DNA of 64,000 bases from Minisyncoccota bacterium. Its GTDB lineage: Bacteria > Patescibacteriota > Minisyncoccia > UBA6257 > GWB1-50-10. The stretch is taken from NCBI GenBank assembly GCA_041917695.1, contig JAYRXE010000037.1:130155-194154 (forward strand), read 5' to 3'. How positions within the stretch are numbered: position 1 is the stretch's first letter; every line of letters starts with the position of its first letter. The notes beneath the pieces are model-generated. The model was not told the DNA's origin and made no database searches. It was given only the letters and a program-made list of their open reading frames with translations. The position numbers and the translations under genes are program-made. Below are positions 2,591-45,922 of the stretch, one piece after another.

Positions 2591-2974
2591 GTGAGCGTGA
2601 ATGACAAAAAAACCATTATCATCGTTGAAGATGAGCCGCTTTTAGGCACGCTTCTCAAGCAACGCATCGAACGCGAAGGCTTTGCGACGGAGCTTTTTTC
2701 CGACGGCAATGAGGCGCTTCGCTATCTCGCTCAAAACGACGCCGCATTGGTGCTTTTGGACATCATTATGCCTAAGATGTCCGGTTTTGAGTTTTTGGAG
2801 ACTCTCAGGAAGGGAACTGGATACCATATTCCGCCGGTCGTTTTCATGTCGAATCTCGGCCAGGAGGTCGATATTAAGCGGGGGGAGGAGCTTGGCGCCG
2901 CCGGTTACTTGGTGAAAGCGAAGGCGTCCTTGGATGAGATTGTGCAGAGCCTGCCTTCGTTTTTCAGGGGATAA
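2591..2974 (+). CDS. Single-domain response regulator (CheY-like receiver)
   Basis: IIIVEDEPLLGTLL...LLDIIMPKMSGFEFLETLR...YLVKA is a receiver-domain pattern. The start is GTG (2591 or 2597); the nearby ATG at 2601 is out of frame. Confidence 0.7.
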   Translation: MSVNDKKTIIIVEDEPLLGTLLKQRIEREGFATELFSDGNEALRYLAQNDAALVLLDIIMPKMSGFEFLETLRKGTGYHIPPVVFMSNLGQEVDIKRGEELGAAGYLVKAKASLDEIVQSLPSFFRG

Positions 2975-3064: not shown

Positions 3065-3616
3065 ATGCAGACGAACAAAGGTTTTACGCTTATTGAGCTC
3101 TTGGTCGTTATCGCGATTCTCGCCGTTTTGGCGACTGCAGTCGTCGTCGTCCTTAATCCGGCACAGCTCGTAAAGCAAGGCAGGGATTCGACCCGCATCT
3201 CGGATCTTGCAGCGATTCATTCCGCGCTTGCGCTCTATCTTTCCGATGTCGCTTCGCCTTCGTTTACGGCGACGACTACCTGCACCGCAACTTCAACGGG
3301 AGGCGCACACCCTACCGGATTTACGACCGCCCAAGTGAATGCGTCAACGACGGTTGGTACGACCGCCTGGGTGAACGTCAATTTCAGCTCCATCAGTTCG
3401 GGTTCGCCGCTTGCACGGCTTCCGATTGATCCGGTAAATGATGCTACATATCACTACTGCTATAAGAGCTCATCGACGCTCATATACGAATTGGATGCGA
3501 ATATGGAAAGCTCCAAGTATGGAGGAGGATCTTCTGACGTTGAAGCGGGGACTAAAGATGGCGGGAACGATGATAACTGGTATGAAATTGGTAACGCGCC
3601 AGGCTTGAATTTATAG
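3065..3616 (+). CDS. Type IV pilin (PilA-like major pilin)
   Basis: MQTNKG|FTLIELLVVIAILAVLA is a class-III prepilin leader with G-1, F+1 and E+5, and it lies upstream of pilB/pilC. Confidence 0.75.
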   Translation: MQTNKGFTLIELLVVIAILAVLATAVVVVLNPAQLVKQGRDSTRISDLAAIHSALALYLSDVASPSFTATTTCTATSTGGAHPTGFTTAQVNASTTVGTTAWVNVNFSSISSGSPLARLPIDPVNDATYHYCYKSSSTLIYELDANMESSKYGGGSSDVEAGTKDGGNDDNWYEIGNAPGLNL

Positions 3617-3640
3617 TTTTGACGGTTTTTACCAAAGAAA

Positions 3641-3670
3641 AACACCGAGAATTCTCGGTGTTTTTCTTTT
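3641..3670 (+). terminator. Rho-independent terminator after the pilin gene
   Basis: CACCGAG-AATT-CTCGGTG hairpin followed by a T-run. Confidence 0.7.
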
Positions 3671-3691
3671 CTGTTATACTTGAACCAGAAA

Positions 3692-5407
3692 ATGATTTCT
3701 CTGCCTGACAATCAGGTGAAGGATATGCTTCTGCGCGCCGGCGTCGTGGATGAAAAATCCTTTGAGCTGGTCAAAACTGAAGCGCTCCGCAAAAACCAAA
3801 ACCCTATAGACGTTTTGATCTCTGAGGGAGTCTTTACGCGCGATTATTTCTACCTTTTGCTGGCTAAAACGCTTGGCCTCGAGCGGGTGAATTTGGGCAC
3901 TATCCAAATCGATGAGGCGGTGATGGAAAAAATCCCCGAAGAAGTGGCGCGGCAGAAGAAGGTAATCGTATTCGGTCGCGATGCGGACGGGGCGTATCTT
4001 GCCGCCATGGAGGACCCCACCGATCTCGAAACGATTGATTTCTTGAAACGGCGCCTGAATGGCTTCGTAAAAGCCTACCTCGCCACTGAAGAGGATTTGA
4101 ATCGCGGATACCTCCTCTATAACAAACAGCTTACTCAGGATTTCAAGAAAATTATCGAGGAGAGCGTCCAGGAAACCCTGCGGCTGAAGGCGCGCGGGGC
4201 CTTGAAGGAAGTAGGGGAGGATTTGCCGGTCGTCGCCATCATCGACAACCTGCTTTCCTACGCCATCTCTTCGCGGAGCTCCGATGTCCATATCGAGGCG
4301 CTTGACGATGCGGTGTATGTGCGGTTTCGCATCGACGGCGTGCTCCATGAGATCATCACCATGCCGAAAGAAATCCGCCCCGCCATCGTGGCCCGCATTA
4401 AAATCCTTTCGAGCCTCCGGGTAGACGAACATACGCATCCGCAAGACGGCCGCTTCAGGTATGCCGTGGGGGACCAGTTCGTCGACATCCGCGTTTCCAT
4501 CTTGCCGACATTCTACGGGGAGAAGGTTGAGATGCGTTTGCTCGCGGATTCCCAGCGCCCGCTGTCGTTCCAATCGTTGGGTATGTTTGATGACTCCATC
4601 AAATTACTCCAAGAAGGCATTTCAAAGACCTACGGCATGGTATTGGTGTGCGGTCCGACTGGTTCGGGTAAATCCACCACACTCTATTCGGTTTTGAACG
4701 TCTTGAACCATCCCGAAGTCAATATTGTGACGATTGAAGATCCCATCGAATACGATATGCGGTATGTGAACCAAATTCAGGTGAATCCGGCCGCCGGCAT
4801 CACTTTTGCTTCGGGACTGCGGTCTATTCTCCGCCAGGATCCCAACATTATCATGGTGGGCGAGGTGCGCGACGGCGAAACGGCGAATATTGCCGTACAA
4901 GCAGCACTTACCGGCCATTTAGTGCTTTCGAGCTTGCACACGAATGACGCGCCGACTGCCATACCGCGTCTCGTCGACATGGGCATTCCGCCCTTTCTCG
5001 TTTCCGCCGTGTTGAATGTCGTCTCGGCGCAACGCCTCGCCCGGCGGATTTGTCGCGATTGCATTGAATCGTATACGCCGCCGGCGGAGATTCGGGATGC
5101 GATTCTCCACGAAGTCGAAGGATTGAAGACGGAAGGAGACGCGACCCGATTGCCGAAAGTCTTTTATCGCGGAAAGGGGTGCCGGACGTGCAGTTTCACG
5201 GGCTTTTTGGGGCGGATGACCATTTGCGAAGTCATGCCTATTTCGGAAGCGATTCGCAAGCTTATCATCGATCCGCACTTCGACCTCGACGAACTCCGTT
5301 TACTCGCCCGAAAGGAGGGGATGGTCACGATGATCGAAGACGGGCTTCGGAAGGTTGAATTGGGCCTTACGACCATCGAGGAGGTCTTTCGCATTATCAG
5401 AGAATAA
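3692..5407 (+). CDS. pilB: Type IV pilus assembly ATPase PilB/GspE family
   Basis: Walker A VLVCGPTGSGKSTT, the GspE N-terminal domain, and the CRDC...CRTC tetracysteine motif. The ORF track starts at a TTG at 3680; the ATG at 3692 is preferred. Confidence 0.85.
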   Translation: MISLPDNQVKDMLLRAGVVDEKSFELVKTEALRKNQNPIDVLISEGVFTRDYFYLLLAKTLGLERVNLGTIQIDEAVMEKIPEEVARQKKVIVFGRDADGAYLAAMEDPTDLETIDFLKRRLNGFVKAYLATEEDLNRGYLLYNKQLTQDFKKIIEESVQETLRLKARGALKEVGEDLPVVAIIDNLLSYAISSRSSDVHIEALDDAVYVRFRIDGVLHEIITMPKEIRPAIVARIKILSSLRVDEHTHPQDGRFRYAVGDQFVDIRVSILPTFYGEKVEMRLLADSQRPLSFQSLGMFDDSIKLLQEGISKTYGMVLVCGPTGSGKSTTLYSVLNVLNHPEVNIVTIEDPIEYDMRYVNQIQVNPAAGITFASGLRSILRQDPNIIMVGEVRDGETANIAVQAALTGHLVLSSLHTNDAPTAIPRLVDMGIPPFLVSAVLNVVSAQRLARRICRDCIESYTPPAEIRDAILHEVEGLKTEGDATRLPKVFYRGKGCRTCSFTGFLGRMTICEVMPISEAIRKLIIDPHFDLDELRLLARKEGMVTMIEDGLRKVELGLTTIEEVFRIIRE

Positions 5408-5409
5408 CC

Positions 5410-6615
5410 ATGCTGTACCACTTTATCGCGTCCGATGCGGACGGAAAGCTTTTTGAAGAGGATGTCGAGGCGAAGAACGTCGACGACGTCGTTTCGATTA
5501 TCGCCGGAAGAGGATTGAAGCCCGTCAGCGTGAAGGCGGTGCGGGGCGGTAATTGGAATATCAATCTTTTCTCGGGAAAGATCACCATCGGCGATCAGAT
5601 TTTCATTTCAAAATACCTTGCGCTCATGCTGAAGATCGGCACGGGTCTGCTTCAGGCGGTCAATATCCTCCTTGAGGATTTTTCAAAGCCGATGATTCGC
5701 CAGTTCCTCCTTGAGGTGCGTTCGAATTTGGAGAAAGGGAAGCCGTTTTATGCAGCGTTCGAAAAATACCATGAGGCGTTCAGCCAGGTGTACGTGAACT
5801 CGGTCCGCGCCGGAGAGGCGTCCGGCAGCCTTGAACAGGTATTCGACAATATGACCGCCTCACTGACGAAGGAGAAGATGCTTCGCGACCAGATCAGGAG
5901 CGCGCTTTTTTACCCGATTATCCTGCTCGTTTCATCGCTCGGCATTTTGTTTTTCCTTATTATGTTTGCCCTTCCTAAGATTGCCGGCGTTTTCAGCCAA
6001 AGCGGGTTTGAGCCCCCGCTTTTTTCCCGTGTCGTTTTTGCCGTCGGATTGTTTCTGGGAAGGTTCGGAGGCTATGCGCTCGCAGTGTTTGCCCTGGCGG
6101 CGATCGGAGGGTTTCTCATGTACCGCTATTCGTACGTTTTCAAACGTTTCGTCGTCGGCATCGTTTCGTCGATCCCCATCGTGAAGGATATTTTGAAAAA
6201 AATATCCCTCCAGCGTTTTGCCGCGACCCTCTCTTCCCTGGTGCGCGCCGGCATGCCGATTACGGACGCACTCGAAATTACCGCGGATTCGGTGTCCCAA
6301 CTCGAGCTCAAAGAGGCTCTGGTGCGTATTTCAAAGGAAGGTATTTCCAAAGGATTGTCTCTCGGCGACGCATTCAAACGGGAACCCTATTTTCCGAAAA
6401 CCGTTGTGAATTTGATTGCAATCTCCGAACATGCGGGGCACATCGAAGAGGTTTTGGCCACACTCGCCGATTTCTACGTGAGCGAAATAGACAGCTCGCT
6501 GAAAACACTGGTCTCTTTCCTTGAGCCTATCATGCTTGTTTTCATCGGCTTGGTCGTCGGTCTTATCGCGCTCGCCATCGTGGTGCCTATTTATCAGCTG
6601 ACGATGCAGTTTTAG
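5410..6615 (+). CDS. pilC: Type IV pilus platform protein PilC/GspF family
   Basis: Two GspF repeats (…AFEKYHEAFSQVYVNSVRAGEASGSLEQVF…; …AFKREPYFPKTVVNLIAISEHAGHIEEVL…) and polytopic TM segments, immediately after pilB. Confidence 0.85.
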   Translation: MLYHFIASDADGKLFEEDVEAKNVDDVVSIIAGRGLKPVSVKAVRGGNWNINLFSGKITIGDQIFISKYLALMLKIGTGLLQAVNILLEDFSKPMIRQFLLEVRSNLEKGKPFYAAFEKYHEAFSQVYVNSVRAGEASGSLEQVFDNMTASLTKEKMLRDQIRSALFYPIILLVSSLGILFFLIMFALPKIAGVFSQSGFEPPLFSRVVFAVGLFLGRFGGYALAVFALAAIGGFLMYRYSYVFKRFVVGIVSSIPIVKDILKKISLQRFAATLSSLVRAGMPITDALEITADSVSQLELKEALVRISKEGISKGLSLGDAFKREPYFPKTVVNLIAISEHAGHIEEVLATLADFYVSEIDSSLKTLVSFLEPIMLVFIGLVVGLIALAIVVPIYQLTMQF

Positions 6616-6622
6616 GCCCGCC

Positions 6623-7735
6623 ATGAAAAAAGCAAAATATTTTTTTGCGCACCGCCGCGGTTTTACGCTGGTCGAGCTTCTCATCGCCGTTGCAATCATC
6701 TCTGCGGTTTCCGTCGGGGGATTCATAGCGCTTTTTAAATATCGCGGCAGCCGCGAAGTCGAACTCACCGTGAATGAGCTTGCGTCAGTCGTGCGCGATA
6801 CGCAGCGGAAATCCGTAACCCAGCAGGGCGGCAAGCGATGGGGCATTCGTTTTGAGAATTCAAGCGCCGGAGCAGGCTCCTTAAAAGTATTCAGCGGGAC
6901 CAGTTTTGCTTCCGGAACGCTTACGCAAACCATCCCGCTTCGCTCGGGTGTTTCATTCGGCGAGCCATTCGCATCAAGCACCTACGACCTCATCTTTGCG
7001 CCGATTGAAGGAACCATTGCTCCGAATAAGGTGGTGACCGTCTACTCAAACAGCGCGGGAGGGTTTGTGGGGGATTTGCTGGTAAACTCACTCGGCAAAG
7101 TGGCTGCCCAACTGGAAACGGGCCTCGTCGGCTATTGGCACATGGACGAAACGACAAGCACGGTTGCCTACGACGCTTCGGGAAACGGGAGAAGCGGAAC
7201 ATTGAGCGGCCTTACGCGACTTTCGGTAACCAATTGCAAGGCGGGCGGATGTCTTCATTCCACCGCCGATTCAATGTCGGTCGCCGGAGCGAATCCTATC
7301 ACCGGCAGTTCTCCTTTCACTATGTCCGCGTGGTTGAATATGGATTCGCATTCCAATTACGGTCTGGCGTTCTATATGGGCGCTGATGCGGTCGGCCAGC
7401 TGGCCTGGATTGGGTGGACGCAATCCGCGCAAGTCGGGACATCGAATTCCATCGGCGGGGGTTTTTACGGTACTAATTTCGGTTCCGGCGTTACCGACAC
7501 CGACGGCTGGCATCATGTCGTTTTCACCTTCGAGGGAGGAGAGGGGGGAGCCGCAAAGCTCTATGTTGACGGCATGGAACGGGCGTCGAGCAACTACACT
7601 CCCAATCTTTCGTCCGCCGGCATCGCGTTCGGGCACCCTTCGTACCCCTATAACGGCGATATCGACGAAGTCCGTCTTTACAATCGCGCCCTTTCGGCTT
7701 CCGAGGTCCTCGCCGAGTACAATGCACTCCGTTAA
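6623..7735 (+). CDS. Prepilin-type (pseudopilin) protein fused to a C-terminal LamG/concanavalin-like domain
   Basis: N-terminus MKKAKYFFAHRRG|FTLVELLIAVAII (G-1/F+1/E+5). C-terminus ...GWHHVVFTFEG...KLYVDGMERASS...GDIDEVRLYNRALSASEV, a LamG-type 'DEVRIYNRALS' signature. Confidence 0.6.
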   Translation: MKKAKYFFAHRRGFTLVELLIAVAIISAVSVGGFIALFKYRGSREVELTVNELASVVRDTQRKSVTQQGGKRWGIRFENSSAGAGSLKVFSGTSFASGTLTQTIPLRSGVSFGEPFASSTYDLIFAPIEGTIAPNKVVTVYSNSAGGFVGDLLVNSLGKVAAQLETGLVGYWHMDETTSTVAYDASGNGRSGTLSGLTRLSVTNCKAGGCLHSTADSMSVAGANPITGSSPFTMSAWLNMDSHSNYGLAFYMGADAVGQLAWIGWTQSAQVGTSNSIGGGFYGTNFGSGVTDTDGWHHVVFTFEGGEGGAAKLYVDGMERASSNYTPNLSSAGIAFGHPSYPYNGDIDEVRLYNRALSASEVLAEYNALR

Positions 7736-7738
7736 CTT

Positions 7739-9037
7739 ATGAAATTTTTTAGAATGCTCCGCCGGGTTCGCGATGGTCAGTCGCTTATTGAGATATTGTT
7801 GGCGCTTGCGATCGGCGCCATTTTGATCGGGGCGGCGGCGCTCGGCATCGCATTCATGATCAAGTCGACGGGCACCAATAGAAACCTCCAAATCGCATCA
7901 TCGCTTGTCCGGGAGACCATTGAAAAACTCCGCGCGTGGTCTTCGGCGGACTGGCAGAACGTCTATGCTCTTGAAAAAGGGCTTACGACCACATATTTTC
8001 TAAACGCTTCCGGAACTACCTTCGCCGCCATTCCCGGAGAGGAGGGGATTATTGAAAGCGATGTTCGATTCGGGCTTTCAGGGCGCTGGGGATTTGATGA
8101 AGCGACGGGAACCGTTGCCTATGACATGGCCGGCGTCGGAATCCACGGGACGCTTACCGGTTCGCCCGTGCGCGCCACCTCGACCGCCTGCAAGCTTGGC
8201 GGTTGCTTGAGTTTTGACGGCACCAATTCGGTCTCGGTTCCCGATGCGACCTCAACGGATCCGACAACTGCTTGGACGCTCGCCGCTTGGATCGAGCGCA
8301 CCGCGACGGGAACCCAGCATTCAGTCATTGAAAAATACGACAATACCGGCGGATTCGGGAATTTTGCCCTTCGCGTGACCGCTTCCGATAAATTAACCGC
8401 CCAGGTATGGGACGGCACCTCAAATGCGGATTGCGGTACGACGGCGACTATATTGCGTGCCGGAGAGTGGTATCATGTCGCCGCCACGTTTGATGCAAGT
8501 TCGAACCGCCTAATTTGTTACGTGAACGGTGAAGCTGAATCTGCCAATGCTTCAGTTTCCATCGATCCTCCCGCGAGCGATGCCACCCTGAAGATCGGGT
8601 GCCGCGGCAATGATTGCGGGACGAAGTTTGAAGGGTTCATCGATGACGCGCGAATATATGACCGTGCGCTCTCGCCGTCAGAAGTGAAGCGCATGGCGCA
8701 AAGCCAGGTTTTCACCCGCTATTTCTCAATTGAAAACACGTGCCGCACGGCTAATTCATCGAGTTCGCTTGAAGCCGCCCCGTGTTCGTTCGGGTATTTC
8801 ATCGATCCTTCCACCCAAAAAGTGACCGCATTGGTTACCTGGCCAACGGCCCAGGCCTCGGGGGAAGTGAAGCTGGTCGAATTCCTTACGCGGTGGAAAA
8901 ACGAGATTTTCCACCAAAGCGACTGGTCGGGCGGGTCCGGCCAAGAGGGGCCGATTTCAGTGCCGAATAACCGTTTTGCAAGCTCCACGAACGTGAATGT
9001 CGATTCTCAGGGGAGAATTCGCATCGAGGGACTTTAA
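7739..9037 (+). CDS. Second pseudopilin-LamG fusion protein (paralog of 6623-7735)
   Basis: N-terminus ...RVRDG|QSLIEILLALAIGAILIG (E+5). The LamG-like core is ...EWYHVAATFDASSNRLICYVNGE...GFIDDARIYDRALSPSEV. Confidence 0.55.
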   Translation: MKFFRMLRRVRDGQSLIEILLALAIGAILIGAAALGIAFMIKSTGTNRNLQIASSLVRETIEKLRAWSSADWQNVYALEKGLTTTYFLNASGTTFAAIPGEEGIIESDVRFGLSGRWGFDEATGTVAYDMAGVGIHGTLTGSPVRATSTACKLGGCLSFDGTNSVSVPDATSTDPTTAWTLAAWIERTATGTQHSVIEKYDNTGGFGNFALRVTASDKLTAQVWDGTSNADCGTTATILRAGEWYHVAATFDASSNRLICYVNGEAESANASVSIDPPASDATLKIGCRGNDCGTKFEGFIDDARIYDRALSPSEVKRMAQSQVFTRYFSIENTCRTANSSSSLEAAPCSFGYFIDPSTQKVTALVTWPTAQASGEVKLVEFLTRWKNEIFHQSDWSGGSGQEGPISVPNNRFASSTNVNVDSQGRIRIEGL

Positions 9038-10518
9038 CGGATTGCGAAAATAGCGGCCTCCTTCGGTATGATTGCGGGTCTTCCGGGCAAGACGTAGCGG
9101 ATATTTTTTTCGTTCTGCTTTTCAAGCGTAAATGAGTCGGTGAGAAACATGACGGTCTGCGCGGGCATCGGGATGCCACGCACGTCAACGCCTCCCGCTT
9201 CGACAATCACATATTTGGGTATCTGCGGGGGGAGCGCATTTACTGAGCGGGCAATTGCCGCGTAGTCGGTTGTAAATGCCCCTGCGGTTTCTGGCGATTC
9301 TCCCCATTCGATGAAATACGCATAATAGGCTTGCACCATCACCATAGCGAAAAAGAGGCCGATGAAGGCCGCGCACGCTTTCGTATGGATATTTTTATTG
9401 AGCAGCCATTCATGAATCGCGACCCCCGCCCATGCGGCGAGAATGATTGCGGAAGGAATCATAAGGATTGCCCGAAGCGCATGAGGAATACCTTCGCTTG
9501 AAACAACGACGGGAAGCGCCGCGACGATAAGGCCCGAGAGGAGAAATATGAACGGGTTCCTCTCCTTTTCCTGACCGCGGCGGGCGAGCTTTGCAATGCC
9601 GAGAAGGAGCGCAGCGGCAAAGAGTATCGCCACGGGCCAGAAAAATTCCGGCGCGCCGGGCAGGTTGTGCCTCCAATTCATGTCCCCGCGGAAGAAAAAC
9701 ATCCCGAACGTGTCAGCTCCGTTCTTTAAGAGGGCCACAGCGGGATTTTCCGTTGAAAAAATTGAAACTTGCGAAGTCCGTCCGAAGAAATCGCCGGGAT
9801 GGCCCGCAAAATAAACGAGGAGCGGCACCGAGACCAGCGCGGCGCCGGCAATGAAAATACTTGCAATGCGCGCCATGTTTTTCGTGCCGATTTCTTTTTT
9901 CCATGCGAAAAAGACGGTGAGTGGGATAAGCGGGGTCGCGCGATATGCGATATATGAATGGAATCCCAATCCATAGACGATTCCCGCCAAAAGCGGAATG
10001 AATACTTTCCCTTTTCGGATAGCAAGAAGGAGAAGCCATGACCCCCACACGAAGAAGAAGGGAGCCATGATGGCGCGGAAGCCGATGCGGGAGAAATTTA
10101 TATGCCAAAAACTCGTTGCAAGGAAAAAGGCGGCGACGAGACCGATGGCGACCGATTTTTTTTCTCCTGAACGGCGAAATAGCTCTCGAGCCAGAAAAAA
10201 GACGCCCAAGACGGTGAAAAATCCAAAAATCGCGCTGGGGAGGCGCAACATCCACGGTTCAGGGGTTCCTTCCGGGGGGGTGAGTCCGCGGAGAAACGCC
10301 GCTTGAATGTTTATAAACAGGCCTTCCCGCCCGTTATTTTCGGGATAGAAAACTTTTCCCCGCAAAAACCCGCCGTTTTGGAGGGTCTCTTCGGCATTCG
10401 AGCCGTTCATCGCTTCGTCCGGGTAGAGTCCCGGCGGGAGATCGGCAATTCGGTAGAATCTAAAAAAGAGCGCAATCCCCAATACCAAAAAAAGAAGGAG
10501 GATTTCTCGAGGCTTCAT
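9034..10518 (-). CDS. GT-C family membrane glycosyltransferase (GT39/PMT/ArnT-like)
   Basis: A polytopic membrane protein with an N-terminal YRIADLPPGLYPDEAMNG (DE motif in the first loop) and many TM helices. It is convergent with the pilin gene. Confidence 0.6.
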   Translation of the reverse strand: MKPREILLLFLVLGIALFFRFYRIADLPPGLYPDEAMNGSNAEETLQNGGFLRGKVFYPENNGREGLFINIQAAFLRGLTPPEGTPEPWMLRLPSAIFGFFTVLGVFFLARELFRRSGEKKSVAIGLVAAFFLATSFWHINFSRIGFRAIMAPFFFVWGSWLLLLAIRKGKVFIPLLAGIVYGLGFHSYIAYRATPLIPLTVFFAWKKEIGTKNMARIASIFIAGAALVSVPLLVYFAGHPGDFFGRTSQVSIFSTENPAVALLKNGADTFGMFFFRGDMNWRHNLPGAPEFFWPVAILFAAALLLGIAKLARRGQEKERNPFIFLLSGLIVAALPVVVSSEGIPHALRAILMIPSAIILAAWAGVAIHEWLLNKNIHTKACAAFIGLFFAMVMVQAYYAYFIEWGESPETAGAFTTDYAAIARSVNALPPQIPKYVIVEAGGVDVRGIPMPAQTVMFLTDSFTLEKQNEKNIRYVLPGRPAIIPKEAAIFAIR

Positions 10519-10548: not shown

Positions 10549-10962
10549 ATGGTGAGAGTTGTGCATTTTGATTCCCCTCCGATGCCCGAAGGCGCATTCG
10601 CGCGCGTGCGCGAAGAAGTTCAGGCTATTCGCTCACGCCCGGAGCTGCGCGATGCTTCGCATGAAGCACTGGTGAAGGAGTCGATAAAGTCGATAGCCGA
10701 AAAGGTTCCCGCCGACAGCCTGCCGACGCCGTCTCCCGCCCCTTCCGCATCCAGCGCGTCTTCGCGTCTTCCGGCCTATGCGGACGATGCGGATGCATCC
10801 GTGAAAACGGAAGTCGAGGCATTACTCCGTCGTGTTGCCGAAAAAGGCCTGCTTGATGCGATTGCCGCGGCGAAAAAGGCGGAACCGTTCGTTGAGGACG
10901 CCTTCCACGACGCCCTCGTCGAAAAAATGATGCCGGCTTTCCGGGAGGAAAGCGGCGTGTGA
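10549..10962 (+). CDS. Hypothetical protein (Ala/Pro/Ser-rich middle region)
   Basis: ORF with no recognisable motif; its stop overlaps the start of the downstream ATPase gene. Confidence 0.3.
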   Translation: MVRVVHFDSPPMPEGAFARVREEVQAIRSRPELRDASHEALVKESIKSIAEKVPADSLPTPSPAPSASSASSRLPAYADDADASVKTEVEALLRRVAEKGLLDAIAAAKKAEPFVEDAFHDALVEKMMPAFREESGV

Positions 10963-13325
10963 CGCGTATGCTTTTTGCGGCCGTTTCCCTTTTCATACTT
11001 ATCGCGGCGAACGTCGCTTTTTTCGTATGGTTTTTCCGGCGAATGCAGGCGAAAGCCGCGCGGGAGCTTTTAGATCTCAAGCTTTTTCTGGTGCGTTTTC
11101 CGCGAAATCCTTCCCGCGACGGAAGGGATGTGAAATCGGAAATCGCCTTATTCGAGCAGTTCGCGGGTTCGCTCCTCGCCTTTAAAAAACCGATGGCATT
11201 CGAGGTGGCGGTCCCTCACGTGGGGGATGAGATCCATTTTTATGCCGCAGTACCGGAACGGCTTTCGGATGTTTTTGCCCGCCAGCTTCAGTCGGTGTGG
11301 CCGGAGGCGCAAGTGGAGCCTGCGCCCGAGTATAGCATCTTCAACCATGCCGGAGCTTCGACGGGCTGTTTTATTTCCCTTGCCGAGAAATACGCCCTCC
11401 CCATCCGCACCTACCAGGAGATCGGCTCGGATACGTTTGCATCGATACTGGGCGGTCTGAATAAAATCTGCGAAGTGGGGGAGGGCGGCGCATTCCAGGT
11501 TCTCATTCGTCCCGCCCCGCCAGAAGCGAAAAAACAAATAATGAACGCGCTTCATGCGGCGAAAAAGGGGAAGGGATTGAAACATATCCTCTCCGGCGGA
11601 GCCATCACCGGCAAGGATTTCCTCAACGCGGCCAAAGGGAAGGATGAGAAGAAGGACGACGAAAAAGTCGTGGACGATGAAGCGGTTAAGGCATTTGCCT
11701 CGAAGTCCGGAAAACCGTTATTCTCCGTGAATATCCGCGCTGTCGCATCGGCCCCCACCAAAGAGCAGGCCGATATCCTCCTGGAGGGCATGACGGCGGG
11801 TTTTTCGCAATTCGGCGCCCCGAACCGGAATGAATTCAAACTCGTCCGCCCCCGCACGCAGAAGCCGTTTCTCTACCAATTCATCTTCAGGGAGTTTGCT
11901 CCGCCGCAGATGCTGGTGCTTTCAAGCGAGGAGCTTGCGAGCATCCTGCATTTCCCGACGGCTTTCACGGAAATCCCAAAGATTAAGCTGTTGAAATTCA
12001 AGGAGTCTCCGCCTCCGCCGGATGTGCCGAAAGACGGCTTAAAGATCGGCGAAAGTCATTTCCGCGGGACCTCTCTCGATATCCGCCTTACTCGGGAAGA
12101 CCGCCGGAGACATGTTTACGCAATCGGACAGACCGGTACCGGTAAATCCGTTTTTCTGAACAATCTCGCGGGGCAGGATATCGTCGCCGGAGAAGGGGTA
12201 TGCGTCATTGATCCGAACGGCGACCTTTTTGAGGACGTTTTGGCGCGGGTGCCGAAAAACCGCGTGCAGGACGTGGTTGTTTTCGATCCGGGGGACCTTT
12301 CCCGTCCGCTTGGCCTCAACATGTTGGAATACGATCCCGCGTTTCCCGAGCAGAAGACCTTCATCGTGAACGAGCTTATGACGATTTTCGACGCGCTCTA
12401 CGATCTGAAAGCGACCGGCGGGCCGATGTTCGAGCAATATGCCCGGAATGCGCTTCTGCTCCTCATGGATGATCCGACGAAAGGGTATACGATCCTTGAG
12501 ATACCGCGCGTCCTTTCCGATGCGTCCTTCCGAAAGAGCTTGCTCGTCGACTGCAAGAATTTTCTCACCAAAGATTTTTGGGAGAAGGAGGCCGAGAAAG
12601 CGGGAGGGGAGGCTGCCCTCCAAAATTTGGTTCCGTATATTTCGAGCAAGTTCAACACCTTCATCGCGAACGACTACGTCCGTCCGGTGATTGCGCAATC
12701 GAAGACTACATTGAATTTCCGCCAGATTATGGATGAAGGAAAGATTCTCATGGTGAACCTTTCAAAAGGGAAGATCGGCGATTTGAACGCCTCGCTCCTC
12801 GGGATGCTCATTGTGGGTAAACTTACCATCGGTGCCTTTGCACGCGGCGACGCGCCCATCGAGAACCGGAAGGATTTCTATCTTTACATCGACGAGTTCC
12901 AGAATTTTACGACGCCTTCCATTGCGACTATCCTTTCCGAGGCTCGTAAATACCGTTTGAATCTTACGGTTGCCCACCAGTTTATCGCGCAATTGTCGGA
13001 TAAAATACGCGACGCGGTGTTCGGCAACGTCGGTTCGCTGGTCGCGTTTCGGGTGGGCGCAGATGATGCGGAATTCCTTGCGAAACAATTCGAACCCACC
13101 TTCGCGTCCACGAACCTCGTGAACATCGACAACCTGAACGCCCATGCGAAGATTTTGGTGAACGGGAAAGTGGCTCCACCCTTCAATATATTCGTGCCGT
13201 TTCCCCCCAAGGGAGATCGGGAGCTGGCGGGACTTGCAAAAGAACATTCACGTCTCGTCTATGGCCGGCCGCGCGAGATTGTCGAACAGGAAATCTATGA
13301 GCGCGTAAAAGGGGAGCGGGTATAA
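10959..13325 (+). CDS. TraD/TrwB/VirD4-family (type IV coupling protein-like) P-loop ATPase with N-terminal TM anchor
   Basis: RHVYAIGQTGTGKSVFLNNL resembles the T4CP Walker A region (RH..VNGATGTGKSVLL). A Walker B-like YLYIDEFQNF and an N-terminal hydrophobic segment are present. Confidence 0.6.
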   Translation: MTRMLFAAVSLFILIAANVAFFVWFFRRMQAKAARELLDLKLFLVRFPRNPSRDGRDVKSEIALFEQFAGSLLAFKKPMAFEVAVPHVGDEIHFYAAVPERLSDVFARQLQSVWPEAQVEPAPEYSIFNHAGASTGCFISLAEKYALPIRTYQEIGSDTFASILGGLNKICEVGEGGAFQVLIRPAPPEAKKQIMNALHAAKKGKGLKHILSGGAITGKDFLNAAKGKDEKKDDEKVVDDEAVKAFASKSGKPLFSVNIRAVASAPTKEQADILLEGMTAGFSQFGAPNRNEFKLVRPRTQKPFLYQFIFREFAPPQMLVLSSEELASILHFPTAFTEIPKIKLLKFKESPPPPDVPKDGLKIGESHFRGTSLDIRLTREDRRRHVYAIGQTGTGKSVFLNNLAGQDIVAGEGVCVIDPNGDLFEDVLARVPKNRVQDVVVFDPGDLSRPLGLNMLEYDPAFPEQKTFIVNELMTIFDALYDLKATGGPMFEQYARNALLLLMDDPTKGYTILEIPRVLSDASFRKSLLVDCKNFLTKDFWEKEAEKAGGEAALQNLVPYISSKFNTFIANDYVRPVIAQSKTTLNFRQIMDEGKILMVNLSKGKIGDLNASLLGMLIVGKLTIGAFARGDAPIENRKDFYLYIDEFQNFTTPSIATILSEARKYRLNLTVAHQFIAQLSDKIRDAVFGNVGSLVAFRVGADDAEFLAKQFEPTFASTNLVNIDNLNAHAKILVNGKVAPPFNIFVPFPPKGDRELAGLAKEHSRLVYGRPREIVEQEIYERVKGERV

Positions 13326-13332
13326 TAAAAAA

Positions 13333-13962
13333 ATGCAAAAGAAGGATTTTATCGTTGTATTTGTCATCGGGCTTCTCATCGGAGGATTCGGTCTTTTTCC
13401 GCTTCGCATCATTCTTGAACCCCTCGCCATTTCCTTCCCACCTCTTTACCAAGCGGTCTTCCCGCTCGCCTGCGCGCTCTTTGCGCTTCTTGCGCTGTTC
13501 GTTCTCAAGCTGCTTTCCCGAAAATTCGCCATCTTCGAGAAGTTCGGCAAATTTGCCGCCGTTGGCACGTTGAATACCGTTATCGATTTTGGCATCGTGA
13601 ACGCTTTTATCGCGGCGACCGGCATTCCCCATGGCTGGCCGTTTGTCGGGTTTAAAGCGGTTTCTTTTTTGGTTGCGACGACCAACAGTTATTTTTGGAA
13701 CAAGTTCTGGACGTTCCAAAGCGCCGCTCCGGTTTCCGCTCAGGAATATGCGCGCTTTGCCGCCTTTACCCTTTTCGGCGTCGGCGTGAACGTGGCCGTA
13801 GCTTCGCTCGTGGTGAACATCCTCCCGCGTCCCCACGGTATGATCCCGGAGATGTGGGCGAATGTGGGCGTTCTTGCCGCCGTACTCGTGTCGTTCATGG
13901 TGAATTTTCTGAACTACAACAAGTTCGTTTTTAAGAAAAAAAATCCGGAGCCTTCCGTCTAA
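13333..13962 (+). CDS. GtrA-family membrane protein (putative lipid-linked sugar translocation)
   Basis: FAAVGTLNTVIDFGIVNAFI...FLVATTNSYFWNKFWTFQ is the GtrA signature. Confidence 0.7.
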   Translation: MQKKDFIVVFVIGLLIGGFGLFPLRIILEPLAISFPPLYQAVFPLACALFALLALFVLKLLSRKFAIFEKFGKFAAVGTLNTVIDFGIVNAFIAATGIPHGWPFVGFKAVSFLVATTNSYFWNKFWTFQSAAPVSAQEYARFAAFTLFGVGVNVAVASLVVNILPRPHGMIPEMWANVGVLAAVLVSFMVNFLNYNKFVFKKKNPEPSV

Positions 13963-13965
13963 GCC

Positions 13966-14688
13966 ATGTATCTTTCCGTCATCATTCCCGCCTACAATGA
14001 GGAAAAGCGCCTTCCCGATACGCTTCGCGACATGCATGCCGTGCTTTCCTCCGCTGATTTCGAATATGAGATTATCGTAGTGAGCGATGGATCGAAGGAC
14101 GGCACGGTTCGCATCGCCGAAGAGCTTGCCGGAGAGATCCGCGGGTTGCGGGTCATCGGCAACGCGGAAAACCACGGCAAGGGATGGGTAACGAAGCAAG
14201 GTATGCGGGAGGCTCGCGGCGCATGGAGGCTTTTTACCGATGCCGACAATTCAACGACCATGCGGGAATTCAAAAAGTTACAGCCCTATCTTACGGACGG
14301 CTACGGCGCCGTATTCGGCTCGCGGGCGCTCCCTGGGTCGGTTCTCCATCCGCCTCAGCCATGGTATCGCCGAATTCCGGGGAAGATTGGGAATCTTATC
14401 ATTCAAGCGCTTGTGCTCCCCGGCATACGCGATACGCAGTGCGGATTCAAATGCTTTTCCGCCAGCGCTGCAGAGGCGGTCTTTCCGAAAATGAAAACCT
14501 CGGGGTGGGGTTTCGATGTTGAGGCGCTCGCGCTTACAAAGCGAGCGGGTTTCAAACTCAAGGAAATTCCCATCGAGTGGCGCAACGACACGCGTTCGAC
14601 CCTGGAGGCGGGAGCGTATATTTCAACCCTCATCGAGGTTGCAAAAATCAGATGGTGGCTGCTTGCCAATGCTTATGAAAAAAAATAA
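13966..14688 (+). CDS. GT2 glycosyltransferase (GtrB / dolichyl-phosphate sugar synthase-like)
   Basis: LSVIIPAYNEEKRLPDTL...VVSDGSKDGT...TDADNS is the GT-A DXD architecture. It is adjacent to the GtrA gene. Confidence 0.75.
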   Translation: MYLSVIIPAYNEEKRLPDTLRDMHAVLSSADFEYEIIVVSDGSKDGTVRIAEELAGEIRGLRVIGNAENHGKGWVTKQGMREARGAWRLFTDADNSTTMREFKKLQPYLTDGYGAVFGSRALPGSVLHPPQPWYRRIPGKIGNLIIQALVLPGIRDTQCGFKCFSASAAEAVFPKMKTSGWGFDVEALALTKRAGFKLKEIPIEWRNDTRSTLEAGAYISTLIEVAKIRWWLLANAYEKK

Positions 14689-16311: not shown

Positions 16312-16367
16312 CACGCTTCAGAACTGGGTATACGCTTACACCGTTTCTTTAACATTGCAGGAATAGC

Positions 16368-16443
16368 TCAGTTGGGAGAGCATCTGCTTCCGCGTAAGCA
16401 GAGGGTCGGTGGTTCGAGTCCATTTTCCTGCTCAAGGGGGAGA
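16368..16443 (+). tRNA. tRNA with a 3-nt-expanded anticodon arm; likely Arg(CCG)-like, identity uncertain
   Basis: Acceptor GCAGGAA/TTCCTGC, D-arm GCTCAGTTGGGAGAGC and T-arm GGTGG-TTCGAGT-CCATT are canonical. The anticodon arm TCTGC-TTCCGCGTAA-GCAGA has a 10-nt loop, or a 7-bp stem with a 6-nt loop. Confidence 0.7.
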
Positions 16444-41674: not shown

Positions 41675-41802
41675 GCGGTTTCCCTTATTGATTAGTGGAT
41701 AATTTACCGTGGAATATATTAAAAGATAGTAGAGGATTTGTCAAGTATGTCCGTACCGCCCTCCTGCTCCGCCCCTTTTTTAGGTACAATAAGGCTACTT
41801 TC

Positions 41803-42441
41803 ATGGCGAAAAAGGTAGGCATTTGGGCGTTCGTGCTTTTTGTGGTGTTTCTCGCCGCATACCTTGCGTATGGACGGTATTGGGGCAGTGAGCGGGCGCT
41901 TTCCGCCCTCGGCGACGTGCGGGGCATTACGCTCGAGAAACTTTCGGCTGCGGGGGAATTTCTAAAAGAAAAAACCACGAAGACGTTTGAAAAGGGAATT
42001 CAGAGCACCTATTCATACATGAAGAAAGGCGCCGGCGAAGGCGTCGCATCGCTTGGCGAAGGACTTGCCGGACTCGGCAATGACCTTGCCGAAAATAACT
42101 CGCCGACCTCGACGAGTTCTTCCGCAAACCCTTCTTCCGTCGCGACCACGACCGTTACGGTTTCATCCACCTCGCCCGAGTCCGGTTTTTTCTCTCCCGC
42201 GCCGTTGTATTCGCTCGTCGCACGCAAAGGCGAACCGCTTCGTTTCTCCATGAACCGGGAGGGCGATTATACGATTGATTGGGGCGACGGGAAGACCGAA
42301 GGGGGAAGCATTGCAAGCGGCGGGGCCGCAGTCGTCGGCCATGTCTGGTCCCGGACGGGCGATTACCGCGTCCGTATCGAGGTGCGCGAAAAAGGCGCCG
42401 GCGCCGAACAGTTTTCATTTCCGGTACGCATCTATGAATAG
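41803..42441 (+). CDS. Secreted/membrane-anchored protein with C-terminal PKD-like domain
   Basis: Signal anchor MAKKVGIWAFVLFVVFLAAYLAYG and C-terminal ...YTIDWGDGKTEGG...GHVWSRTGDYRVRIEVRE (PKD WDFGDG...HxY...GxY pattern). Confidence 0.5.
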   Translation: MAKKVGIWAFVLFVVFLAAYLAYGRYWGSERALSALGDVRGITLEKLSAAGEFLKEKTTKTFEKGIQSTYSYMKKGAGEGVASLGEGLAGLGNDLAENNSPTSTSSSANPSSVATTTVTVSSTSPESGFFSPAPLYSLVARKGEPLRFSMNREGDYTIDWGDGKTEGGSIASGGAAVVGHVWSRTGDYRVRIEVREKGAGAEQFSFPVRIYE

Positions 42442-43261
42442 CGCGGAGCCGAAATATCTCCCGAAGAAGAACGTATTGCAATACGCGCCCCGCGCGCGGA
42501 AATCGCGCAATATAAAGAAAATCGTTCTTATTGCGTCTGCCTCCGTTATCGTCGCTCTCGTCTCCCTCGGCGTATGGGTGATGAATGCGCGTTTTTTCTC
42601 AGTTTCGGATTTTTCGGTTTCCGGAGAACGCCTCTTAACGGCGGACGAAGTCAAAGCCGCTCTCGTTTCGCGAATCGCGGGGGAGTCGTCCCTGCGGAAA
42701 TTCCTCGGCGAGAACCATATTTTCTTTTGGATATTCGCACGGCGCGACTATGCGTTTTCGGAACCTACCGAATTGGCGTCCGTTTCTTTAAATCCGGACT
42801 TTTGGTCGCGAAAGGTTTCCCTTACCGCCGTTGAGCGGGAAGTTGCGCATATCGTCTGCCGTCCGAGCGAAGCGGCGTGCTACGGGGTCACCGGCGAGGG
42901 AATCGTTTTTTCGCGGATTCCCGAGGTGCGGGGCTCGCTCATTTTGCGCATTGAAGACGAACATCCGGCCCCCGTCGTCTTCGGGACCGCGTATTTCGGC
43001 GACAGCGGTTTTTTGCCGAACGTGTACCGCACGAAAGAGGTCTTGGACCGCGCGGGGCTTACGCCGGCCGTGATACGCGTACGCGACCGCGCCCTGTATG
43101 AATGGGAGGCGGTTTTCCCGGAAGGACCCGTCATCTATTTCAGCGGATTCTTCGTTCCCAAGGACCTGGCTGAAATACTCCGCGACATCCGCTCGCGCGA
43201 ATCGTGGAATGCGCTTTCCTATGTTGATTTTCGCGTGGAGAACAAGGTGTTCTACCGGTGA
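42434..43261 (+). CDS. FtsQ/DivIB-like cell division protein (POTRA domain)
   Basis: Cytoplasmic N-terminus, TM IVLIASASVIVALVSLGVWV, then FSVSDFSVSGERLLTADEVKAAL (POTRA-like). Confidence 0.5.
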   Translation: MNSAEPKYLPKKNVLQYAPRARKSRNIKKIVLIASASVIVALVSLGVWVMNARFFSVSDFSVSGERLLTADEVKAALVSRIAGESSLRKFLGENHIFFWIFARRDYAFSEPTELASVSLNPDFWSRKVSLTAVEREVAHIVCRPSEAACYGVTGEGIVFSRIPEVRGSLILRIEDEHPAPVVFGTAYFGDSGFLPNVYRTKEVLDRAGLTPAVIRVRDRALYEWEAVFPEGPVIYFSGFFVPKDLAEILRDIRSRESWNALSYVDFRVENKVFYR

Positions 43262-45133: not shown

Positions 45134-45922
45134 ATGAAGAAAAAAATCTCCGGATTTTCTCGTCGAGCGGGGTTCTCGCTCATCGAGATCATGATTTATA
45201 TCGCTATTTTCGCGGTTTCCGCGGTCTTTTTGACGAGCATCCTGACGGTTATCACCCGGGTCCAGCTGAAGCAGGCGTCGACCCACGAGCTTGAACAACA
45301 GATTTCCTTCGTGGGCGACGCGGTCCAGCGGTACGTGCAGAAATCGAATCTTATCGATATTGATCCGGGAACGGCGACCTCTACCTTGCGCCTTCGGATG
45401 GCCGCTTCTTCGACCGACGTCACCCTCATCTACGCCTCCGGCACCGTCCTGTACCTCGACGAGCGCGACGTGAACGGGGACGCTCAAATCACGGCGCTTA
45501 CGGATTCGAAGGTCTCCGTTGATTCCTTCTACGTGACGAAATACGAAAATCCCGGCGGCTTCGCCGTGGCGGAGCTGAACCTCGTAATGAGCTATAACAC
45601 GGACAATCCGCAGGCGGATGCGACGCGCACCTTGCAGACCGCCATCACCCGCATTTCCGCCGCCGAATTCGATTCGGACGTGAATCCGAACACGGACAAC
45701 GCCTTGAACCTCGGCGCGGTGGGGAAGAACTGGCGGAACGCCTATTTCTCCGGCACGCTCCAGGTAGGCTCGAATATCAAGCTCGTGGGCTCCACGGGAA
45801 ACCTGGCGACGATCGGCGCGGGGAACGGGCTTATCATGAAAACGCCGAACGGCTCGGCCTGCTACCTCGTTTCCGTCACGAACTCGGGTACGGTAACCTC
45901 GACGGCGACCAGCTGTCCCTAG
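45134..45922 (+). CDS. Type IV pilin-like protein (pseudopilin/minor pilin)
   Basis: MKKKISGFSRRAG|FSLIEIMIYIAIFAV has G-1/F+1/E+5. The ATG at 45134 is preferred over the track start. Confidence 0.65.
   Translation: MKKKISGFSRRAGFSLIEIMIYIAIFAVSAVFLTSILTVITRVQLKQASTHELEQQISFVGDAVQRYVQKSNLIDIDPGTATSTLRLRMAASSTDVTLIYASGTVLYLDERDVNGDAQITALTDSKVSVDSFYVTKYENPGGFAVAELNLVMSYNTDNPQADATRTLQTAITRISAAEFDSDVNPNTDNALNLGAVGKNWRNAYFSGTLQVGSNIKLVGSTGNLATIGAGNGLIMKTPNGSACYLVSVTNSGTVTSTATSCP

Follow-up and report, generated by a model that had tools for sequence, protein, structure and literature searches.

In the genome of a small-genome member of the Patescibacteria (named relatives: Jorgensenbacteria and Paceibacterota), as the first-pass annotation had supposed in speaking of a reduced-genome organism, two open reading frames lie in tandem behind the genes for a pilus assembly ATPase and its platform protein. 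This raises the question of what the two proteins, here called A and B, are and what they contribute to the pilus. Host recognition and attachment by ultra-small Patescibacteria are largely unknown, with no genetics outside the Saccharibacteria. The window referred to below is the whole stretch of DNA that was analysed (64 kb), in which the genes preceding A and B are:

2591..2974, + strand: single-domain response regulator, head of the conserved pil block (Pfam Response_reg, E 6e-23)
3065..3616, + strand: putative major pilin PilA, 183 aa, leader MQTNKG/FTLIE (predicted cut after G), S/T-rich globular part (N_methyl E 1.7e-9, TIGR02532)
3634..3669, + strand: hairpin with a 16-bp stem between pilA and pilB, candidate attenuator/terminator (terminator-like scan)
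3680..5407, + strand: assembly ATPase PilB/GspE with MshEN N-domain (T2SSE E 3.5e-121, MshEN E 4.4e-14)
5410..6615, + strand: platform protein PilC/GspF (T2SSF E 1.1e-52, two stretches)

The T2SSE and T2SSF genes thus directly precede A and B, as first annotated, with gaps of 7 nt between PilC/GspF and A and of 3 nt between A and B. The hairpin is a consensus match, and its role as an attenuator or terminator is putative. In at least 10 Patescibacteria loci the order response regulator-pilA-pilB-pilC-A-B is conserved; PilA occurs in 1-3 copies per relative, and the response regulator holds the equal position in L002, L004, L007, L010, L012, and L013. A gene for a VirD4/TraD-like ATPase always follows B, and B is named 'pseudopilin PulG' in source annotations.

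Both proteins begin with the class III prepilin leader that had been read from their translations. The leader comprises residues 1-13 in both (...HRRG/FTLVE in A and ...VRDG/QSLIE in B), with Gly at -1, Phe or Gln at +1 and Glu at +5, and the hydrophobic count after the predicted cleavage site is 20/20, as in class III signal peptides. The N_methyl model of Pfam scored 30.6 bits for A and 24.2 bits for B (gathering cutoff 21.2), and TIGR02532 scored 28.2 bits for A and gave no score for B. G-1 is conserved in both families, E+5 is invariant in them (15/15 A-family and 113/113 B-family sequences), and all 106 of the 106 B sequences that include the N-terminus have G-1/Q+1, so that the Gln at +1 of B is unusual yet invariant. 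In the A-core profile the mature residue 1 of solved pilin chains aligns to the F after G13, and the profiles of both the A core and the B core match solved pilins in alpha1N only. Like type IV pilins, A and B are encoded together with an assembly ATPase and a platform protein, an association kept in relatives.

That A and B might instead be surface proteins held by an uncleaved N-terminal signal-anchor helix would agree with the prepilin peptidase PilD not being found in the window or in 92 further loci. It is hardly credible in view of the G-1/+1/E+5 pattern, which is invariant across more than 100 homologues, the N_methyl scores above threshold, the operon shared with pilB and pilC, and the alpha1 helices of 50-56 residues predicted by AF2 for A and B.

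The domain layout of the two proteins was determined from Pfam matches, AF2 models (alignment without locus-derived rows) and, for B, the family alignment:

6623..7735, + strand: minor pilin A, 370 aa; alpha1 and beta-rich pilin core residues 14-165 (nt 6662-7117), LamG residues 166-370 (nt 7118-7732)
7739..9037, + strand: minor pilin B, 432 aa; alpha1 and first beta-hairpin residues 14-105 (nt 7778-8053), LamG residues ~106-322 (nt 8054-8704), C-terminal module residues 323-432 (nt 8705-9034)

The ORF coordinates are exact. Laminin_G_3 matched residues 216-362 of A (E 8.5e-22, 78.4 bits) and residues 160-317 of B (E 1e-31, 110.6 bits) against a Pfam gathering score of 27.6, and the HMM search proposed in the first-pass annotation thus placed N_methyl and Laminin_G_3 above their gathering scores in both proteins, a combination that brings both under the definition of modular pilins (PMC8179133). 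The structure prediction proposed there likewise gave a LamG/ConA-like jelly roll in both, and PF13385 together with this beta-jelly-roll assigns A and B to the Laminin_G_3/ConA-like superfamily. The model of A (pLDDT 71.5, 50-70 in the LamG part) has a helix at 16-65 and strands at 73-165, followed by the jelly roll; that of B (pLDDT 86.5) has a helix at 15-70, strands at 81-105, the jelly roll at 113-320 and long strands at 324-384. The tail of B (388-432) is of low confidence in the model yet conserved in sequence.

Searched against PDB sequences, the LamG parts matched the arabinan-binding domain 4 of AbnA. Foldseek returned 5hon_A (TMt 0.75 for B and 0.71 for A), the Hc-N domains of BoNT/TeNT and, for model A, 7oa7, the lectin-module pilin PilC of Streptococcus sanguinis (E 5.8e-8). 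These fold relatives (AbnA domain 4 and S. sanguinis PilC), together with the hypervariable core described below, suggest that both LamG domains may bind carbohydrate or another ligand. Laminin_G_3 domains also mediate protein contacts, which counts against presuming a glycan. The 'TafC fimbrial protein' model (NF052521) was rejected, as A and B scored 25.4 and 56.6 bits against a cutoff of 410, in the LamG part only.

The two proteins differ in how the LamG domain is attached. A is a core minor pilin of ~165 aa with LamG grafted at its C-terminus: its LamG-less homologues (154/170 aa, from two loci, L085 and L088) end where the LamG of A begins (A residue ~165). A homologue search with the A pilin core (residues 1-168) gave no matches, the self-match being absent as well. 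The LamG of B is an insertion of ~215 aa: a conserved core minor pilin of ~220 aa is interrupted in the loop that follows its first beta-hairpin, and in the alignment B differs from LamG-less family members by one clean gap of ~215 aa. The first-pass annotation had placed LamG at the C-terminus of both proteins, which is correct for A (residues 166-370) and not for B, where it is internal (~106-322 of 432) and followed by ~110 conserved residues. The closing motif D[ED]VR[IL]YNRALS..EV that had been ascribed to both is exact in A (DEVRLYNRALSASEV) and differs at two positions in B (DDARIYDRALSPSEV). Only A qualifies as a modular pilin in the sense of a C-terminal graft joined by a short linker, and modular pilins can also arise when a domain is inserted into a minor pilin of the core type.

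The C-terminal module of B (~110 aa) had 621 representative matches in the homologue search; no match was found for it (113 aa) in Pfam at E<=10 or by sequence search of the PDB. Together with the leader it identifies the family (G/QSLxE leader, QTDWSGG C-terminal module). The B-type core also occurs without LamG or bearing other modules. L085 and L088 encode A- and B-type pilins that have no LamG, again one after the other directly behind pilC. The suggested comparison with minor pilin sets of relatives recovered the A-B pair after pilC, with or without LamG. A and B represent the tandem pair of core minor pilins found behind pilC in Patescibacteria, which in this lineage bear LamG. A 137-aa ORF after B was considered as the counterpart of a 136-aa pilin-like ORF after the short B in L085 and rejected, as the two are not homologous.

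A new finding is that each LamG is hypervariable in its middle, over ~130 aa:

7268..7651, + strand: hypervariable core of the A LamG, residues 216-343 (P0002 vs P0005, region identities, DNA similarity hole)
8219..8629, + strand: hypervariable core of the B LamG, residues 161-297 (113-member clustering, P0116 vs P0146, DNA similarity hole)

In both families the scaffold is conserved more than the LamG core: among orthologues, scaffolds 90-98% identical enclose cores of ~15-20% identity. The A-family members P0002 and P0005 are 84% identical in the flanks and 20% in the core, and the B-family members P0116 and P0146 are ~98% identical outside the core and ~20% inside. When 113 B-family members were clustered at >=40% identity, the flanks formed 1 cluster and the cores 68 clusters; mosaic pairs are over-represented in these data, as the database, clustered at 90% identity, merges pairs with the same cores. 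Core length is conserved (119-150 aa), as are the edges of the segment (CxxGxCLxFDG ... FxGxIDDVRIYNRALS). At the DNA level, orthologous loci that are 85-89% identical (~87%) lose all similarity exactly at the two LamG segments; in L089 compared with L091 the holes lie at L089 5845-6490 (A LamG core) and 6962-7316 (B LamG core). The variation is observed between lineages, not within one genome. As the centre of LamG is swapped wholesale between close relatives, it is likely to be the target-recognition part.

Antigenic variation of Neisseria PilE/pilS and the swapping of phage tail-fibre tips follow the same principle, in that a sharply bounded exposed segment is replaced wholesale on a conserved scaffold. 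Unlike pilS-type systems, the window contains neither silent copies of the LamG cores nor template repeats for them. A DGR or silent-cassette system within the window was rejected, as blastn of both LamG segments matched only themselves, and phmmer found no further LamG ORF in the 64 kb.

Exposed parts of pili are classic phage receptors and targets of antigenic variation, Neisseria PilE being an example, and the hypervariability might accordingly reflect escape, with allelic replacement of the LamG heads evading pilus-specific phages or host defence. The same mosaic pattern speaks for this, and such escape is compatible with, rather than exclusive of, an adhesin function. As an explanation in its own right it is very unlikely, since it leaves the retained lectin-type fold and the conserved core length (119-150 aa) unexplained.

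LamG-carrying modular pilins are already known from S. sanguinis PilC, from the catalogued N_methyl plus PF13385 pilins and from TM7x PilX1. In S. sanguinis, the pilin PilC bears a lectin module, binds glycans and was modelled at the pilus tip (PMC9934059). Like A and B, it combines a class III signal peptide, a pilin moiety and a ConA-like/LamG-type jelly roll (7OA7/7OA8; PMC9934059) and is encoded in a pil locus beside another modular pilin, with monoderm-type machinery that has no secretin. In contrast to it, A and B have no Ig-like linker module and show no detectable sequence similarity to it outside the fold; both carry LamG, whereas the S. sanguinis pair combines vWA and lectin modules; the module of PilC is grafted and that of B inserted; and binding has been shown for PilC, whereas A and B are known from sequence.

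[quoted passage not shown] Several representatives across these 15 belong to CPR phyla (PMC8179133). In that survey the modules are C-terminal grafts, and the core pair after pilC, the insertion in B and the hypervariable core are not described there. Literature searches turned up no specific report of pilins in Patescibacteria that are hypervariable or bear LamG.

In the saccharibacterium TM7x the lectin-like minor pilins PilX1 and PilX2 are proposed tip proteins for host glycan binding, and deletion of PilX2 lowers host binding (PMC11623550). Like A and B, they are T4P minor pilins from Patescibacteria whose lectin-like modules are large and rich in beta-structure, although they are reported without a predicted PilD signal, whereas the signals of A and B are canonical. 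PilX2 is a beta-propeller and the TM7x modules are described as C-terminal; the likeness to A and B is one of description. TafC, a LamG-containing subunit of haloarchaeal Tat-fimbriae (NF052521; PMC11821415), resembles A and B in having a LamG-type domain in a filament subunit and in that domain only, as it is Tat-exported and not a prepilin.

With these precedents, the reading we prefer, at a probability of about 0.62, is that A and B are a minor-pilin pair located at the tip that displays exchangeable lectin-like specificity modules. The adhesin role named in the first-pass annotation fits the precedents (PMC9934059, PMC8179133, PMC11623550) as well as the LamG cores being hypervariable; binding and tip location are inferred. 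A prepilin peptidase encoded elsewhere would cleave A and B after G13, and both would enter the filament via their E5-bearing alpha1 helices. They would be part of the priming/tip complex, given their bulk and low-copy operon position. The two LamG modules would act as ligand-recognition heads, probably glycan-binding, for attachment to host cells or surfaces. The central ~130 aa of each would be an exchangeable cassette between conserved edge strands, replaced by recombination among lineages and with types common to the A and B slots; such replacement would retarget binding with pilus assembly undisturbed.

The LamG modules might, on the other hand, be structural. A and B would then belong to the priming complex, and their bulky domains would cap the filament tip, stabilise it or bind a partner protein, with no external ligand, after the models of the inserted domain of GspK and the PilY1-minor-pilin complex. 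The pilin cores and the C-terminal module of B are indeed the most conserved parts, the core pair occurs without LamG in other lineages, so that priming does not need LamG, and the insertion in B resembles the topology of GspK, a tip-located T2SS protein with an extra domain within the pilin fold (PMC8179133). The insert of GspK is an alpha-domain and GspK has no E5, whereas B has a LamG insert and an invariant E5; neither A nor B looks like a GspK-type terminal cap, because both keep E5, and the GspK model of NCBIfam had no match in A or B. Were the domain purely structural, replacement of its core between orthologues with scaffolds 90-98% identical would be surprising, and its relatives in fold bind carbohydrates or receptors. 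We consider this explanation unlikely.

The sharply bounded hypervariable LamG cores on a conserved and recognisable minor-pilin pair are concrete candidate specificity determinants, and core types could be typed in metagenomes against co-occurring hosts or expressed for glycan-array or cell-wall binding. The CxxGxC loop common to the LamGs of A and B is rare among other LamG matches, and one A core is 47% identical to B cores, where the median among B cores is 24-26%; both features point to a possible common pool of A and B LamGs. A recent A-to-B LamG duplication was rejected, as the LamG of A is closer to other LamG proteins (47% identical to P0015) than to the LamG of B (31%). It is conceivable, if doubtful, that the cores of A and B belong to one pool of specificity cassettes, interchangeable and shared across the population, by which Parcubacteria-type episymbionts switch their host range. 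Cassettes would then pass from one lineage to another, and from the A slot to the B slot or back, by recombination at the conserved edge strands of LamG, and cassette type would predict the host. More speculative still is the further layer of this idea, in which pilin B and the orphan VirD4-like ATPase always encoded after it would form a pilus-coupled translocation device.

Whether the fibre is a true pilus was judged from the remaining machinery. The 'complete' fibre system of the first-pass annotation was not borne out, as the 64-kb window is without PilD, PilM/N/O, PilT and a second T2SSE ATPase. A regex for the PilD motif found none in the window, nor did phmmer with an approximate Pseudomonas aeruginosa PilD query in the window and 92 further loci. 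Neither a secretin GspD nor GspC/L/M was found among the window genes scanned, so that a T2SS was not recognised, and a secretin-less pil block is common to Patescibacteria relatives.

The proteins could nevertheless form a short pseudopilus, be it a secretion piston resembling that of a T2SS or a DNA-uptake pilus of the Com type, with LamG contacting the cell's own wall polymers or cargo. The ATPase scored almost equally as PilB (515 bits) and GspE (508 bits), the platform protein had partial NCBIfam scores for GspF/PilC that were higher for GspF, and the N-terminus of A had weak ComGD and GspH matches; the 'pseudopilin PulG' annotation of B, the window without PilT, the VirD4/TraD-like ATPase always after B and the DNA uptake proposed for CPR pili (PMC5220378) agree with this explanation as well. 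All equivalog scores are, however, far below their cutoffs, including those of the ATPase, and the best NCBIfam matches of A and B to T2SS pseudopilins and Com minor pilins (score/cutoff: ComGD 26.9/70, GspH 20.4/80, PilV 20.4/52.2) are confined to the N-terminal helix, which does not place them among these proteins. The window without secretin or GspC/L/M, the PilA-type major pilin of 183 aa and the attenuator-like hairpin fit a true pilus better. Modules that are hypervariable and face outwards would be expected to meet external targets rather than self or cargo. The thin pilus of TM7x (T4P-2) had a part in host binding, and its mutants kept wild-type competence (PMC11623550). A pseudopilus is thus unlikely.

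The pilA gene at 3065 and a fourth prepilin gene, both listed in the first-pass annotation, are real, as seen from N_methyl matches and from leaders read in translation:

45134..45922, + strand: fourth prepilin-type protein, 262 aa, RRAG/FSLIE (predicted cut after G) (N_methyl E 1.3e-6)

This gene lies apart from the pil block, in divergent orientation to a second PMT_2 gene, and its product has weak N-terminal matches of the PpdC/ComGE/ComGF/GspJ type.

ORFs A and B, the tandem prepilin genes with LamG domains, lie exactly where the first-pass annotation had placed them, with intergenic gaps of 7 nt before A and 3 nt before B. The pil block and the other features considered with it are as follows:

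860-2373, + strand: solitary 16S rRNA gene, flanked by the L31 gene (367-627, minus strand) on one side and by the response regulator/pil operon on the other
2591-2974: response regulator gene, upstream of A
3065-3616: PilA-type pilin gene (183 aa), upstream of A
3634-3669, + strand: hairpin with a perfect 16-bp stem, in the pilA-pilB intergenic region
3680-5407: PilB/GspE gene, upstream of A
5410-6615: PilC/GspF gene, directly upstream of A
6623..7735, + strand: ORF A, 370 aa
7739..9037, + strand: ORF B, 432 aa
from 45134: fourth prepilin gene

The earlier interpretation of these genes was partly supported, but not that of a "complete" adhesion/uptake fibre system in the window: a six-frame motif scan of the window recovered pilA (3065) and the prepilin at 45134 besides A and B, and only these four, and PilD, PilM/N/O and PilT were not found within the 64 kb. 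The hairpin looks like an attenuator that would leave pilA expression high and that of pilB-pilC-A-B low. No 23S or 5S rRNA gene accompanies the 16S rRNA gene within the 64 kb; the order L31, gap, response regulator and pil genes was seen again in L002, where the gap presumably corresponds to the 16S rRNA gene.

Both A and B exceeded the gathering score of the Pfam model N_methyl, and A was also matched by the NCBIfam model TIGR02532. The prepilin leaders proposed earlier were borne out as HRRG/FTLVE in A and VRDG/QSLIE in B (slash, predicted cleavage site), with G-1 and E+5 conserved. E+5 was invariant in both families, F+1 in the A family, and G-1, Q+1, S+2 and L+3 across the 106 B-family sequences that included the N-terminus. 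At the predicted mature residue 1 (residue 14, nt 7778-7780) B has Gln, as do 106/106 homologues and the LamG-less short forms; this is an unusual residue for bacterial pilins, which typically have Phe or Met here. A rival reading, to be weighed against this leader conservation, is that A and B are uncleaved signal anchor proteins; under the preferred reading, they would be cleaved by a PilD encoded elsewhere in the genome. The locus might alternatively encode a secretion or DNA-uptake pseudopilus; NCBIfam matches of A to ComGD/GspH and of B to PilV were weak, restricted to the N-terminal helix and far under the cutoffs.

An HMM search placed both proteins above the Pfam gathering score of Laminin_G_3 (A residues 216-362, E 8.5e-22; B residues 160-317, E 1e-31), in agreement with the LamG/ConA-like domains first assigned to them, and PDB sequence searches matched AbnA arabinan-binding domain 4 (5hon) and the LamG domain of an S-layer protein (4qvs). 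AlphaFold2 modelled B (pLDDT 86.5) with a 56-residue alpha1 followed by a beta-hairpin at 81-105, a jelly roll at 113-320 and long strands at 324-384; in the model of A (pLDDT 71.5), alpha1 (16-65) and then a beta-rich region (73-165) precede a jelly roll that extends to the C-terminus. Using Foldseek, the two models matched 5hon with target-normalised TM-scores of 0.75 (B) and 0.71 (A), consistent with a LamG fold, and both also matched the jelly-roll Hc-N domains of clostridial neurotoxins; the A model additionally matched 7oa7, the lectin-module PilC pilin of S. sanguinis (E 5.8e-8). A CxxGxC loop is common to the A and B LamG domains and rare among other LamG hits.

A and B belong to an already known type, the modular pilin. 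Raynaud et al. 2021 gave the definition of modular pilins, and their InterPro survey placed N_methyl plus PF13385 among the commonest architectures, with CPR phyla providing several representatives of the top architectures (PMC8179133). Moreover, S. sanguinis PilC is an experimentally characterised lectin-module pilin (PMC9934059), lectin-like minor pilins of Saccharibacteria TM7x were proposed as host-binding tip proteins (PMC11623550), and source annotations already label A/B-type proteins prepilin-type or LamG. No description of the conserved core pair, the insertion topology of B or the cassette-like LamG cores was found in the searchable literature.

A protein identical to B is encoded on an NCBI contig of 679,953 bp, and full-length B homologues (35-76% identity) occur in Jorgensenbacteria, Brennerbacteria, Paceibacterota, Magasanikbacteria and other Patescibacteria; the narrower A family has about 14 full-length members. 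The recurrent gene order (>10 loci) is response regulator, pilA (1-3 copies), pilB, pilC, A, B, small ORF, VirD4-like ATPase, (GtrA) and GT2.

The last 113 residues of B, without a match in Pfam or the PDB, are the best-conserved part of the B family and gave 621 hits at E<=1e-3 in a search of 1.84 billion representative proteins. Among 130 newly retrieved representatives of this segment, LamG precedes it in ~34 and is lacking in ~41, of which 29 are complete pilins of 205-230 aa that share the G/QSLxE leader and the other 12 carry C-terminal extensions (e.g., repeat, propeller-like or Cys-rich regions); the remainder consists of a few with other inserts and otherwise of fragments. Aligned to B, the short forms covered residues 1-105 and 323-432 and left a single clean gap of ~215 aa. 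This identifies B as a conserved core minor pilin into which LamG is inserted after the first beta-hairpin. On two Patescibacteria contigs a short B gene after pilC is preceded by the gene of a 154- or 170-aa pilin, which aligns to A residues 1-165 (26-39% identity) and stops at the start of the A LamG, which makes A a core minor pilin bearing a C-terminally grafted LamG. The C-terminal LamG position originally described for both proteins thus holds for A (graft after residue 165) and fails for B (residues ~106-322 inserted). The comparison with minor pilins of related genomes recovered the tandem core pair after pilC with or without LamG; the pair is ancestral and its LamG decoration lineage-specific. 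In another locus (L018, 3463-7419) the place of A after pilC is taken by a 1318-aa prepilin without the LamG motif. In L088 (1263-2581) the two short minor-pilin genes are interspersed with two genes encoding 23S-rRNA-intervening-sequence proteins (PF05635).

The tail of B (residues 388-432, nt 8900-9034; QSDWSGGSGQEGP...SSTN...GRIRIEGL) combines conservation that ranks with the highest in the family and low model confidence (AlphaFold2 pLDDT 42-65), which suggests a partner-dependent segment, e.g., one that would engage in strand complementation with another minor pilin.

Alignment columns had low entropy across the pilin parts and in the terminal (first and last) strands of LamG, and high entropy in its centre. 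Region-wise identities of three homologues (P0073-P0075) to B were 60-84% in the scaffold and 15-19% in residues 161-297; A showed the same discontinuity at residues 216-343. Many family pairs had flanks 90-94% and cores 14-20% identical, and BLASTP of P0116 against P0146 gave ~98% identity on either side of a ~125-aa block at ~20%; P0002 against P0005 gave the equivalent picture for A. The B proteins P0116 and P0146 are encoded in orthologous, fully syntenic loci, whose DNA is 85-89% identical throughout save two holes without detectable similarity, coinciding with the A LamG and the B LamG core. Clustering of 113 pairwise realigned B sequences at >=40% identity yielded one scaffold cluster and 68 core clusters (core length 119-150 aa). 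The fraction of mosaic pairs is inflated because the searched database was clustered at 90% identity and core-sharing pairs were thereby removed. Since point mutation cannot erase similarity where flanks differ by only ~12% in DNA, we infer from these sequence comparisons that cores are replaced via recombination with divergent alleles. No template repeat or silent copy of LamG segments was found in the window. One of the A cores reaches 47% identity to B cores, well above the B-B median of 24-26%, which suggests that A and B cores draw on a common pool of core types.

A and B would enter the pilus tip within the priming complex, a location suggested by their bulky modules, the low-copy genes after the attenuator-like hairpin and the analogy with S. 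sanguinis PilA-B-C (PMC9934059). Their LamG heads would recognise a ligand, probably a glycan, and core exchange would retarget binding. Rival explanations for the same domains are a purely structural or priming role of the LamG modules and, for the core variation, escape from phage or host. The hypervariable cores are testable host-specificity candidates in uncultured Patescibacteria.

Downstream, a 137-aa soluble acidic ORF (10549-10962, +) overlaps by 4 nt the gene of a 788-aa membrane-anchored VirD4/TraD/TrwB-like ATPase (10959-13325, +; precomputed Pfam label DUF8128). Pilin B is always followed by these two genes (window, L002-L020, L089-L092), even where B is the lone pilin without pilB, pilC and A (L003, L009, L011, L020). 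Patescibacteria reportedly carry thousands of orphan T4CP homologues, possibly exapted (PMC12102498). The B-ATPase association could reflect a functional link or simple colinearity, as the order of the housekeeping genes downstream is conserved too.

A PMT_2 (GT-C) gene (9034-10518, -) is convergent with B, with 4 nt in common at the stops, and is present only in the window, L001 and L004. GtrA-like (13333-13962, +) and GT2 (13966-14688, +) genes lie downstream, and a second PMT_2 gene (43252-45081, -) and the fourth pilin gene (45134) are divergently oriented. The clustering of these glycosylation genes around the pilin genes, together with an S/T-rich stretch in PilA, suggests pilin O-glycosylation. 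Just upstream of the second PMT_2 gene and the fourth pilin, two overlapping ORFs (41695-43261, +), one with a PKD domain (weak hits) and one of 328 aa without a Pfam match, may encode further surface proteins. At 16357-16433 (+) ARAGORN called a tRNA to which it assigned no identity, reading a four-base anticodon "(cgcg)" at position 35, and Rfam also scored this region as tRNA (55 bits).
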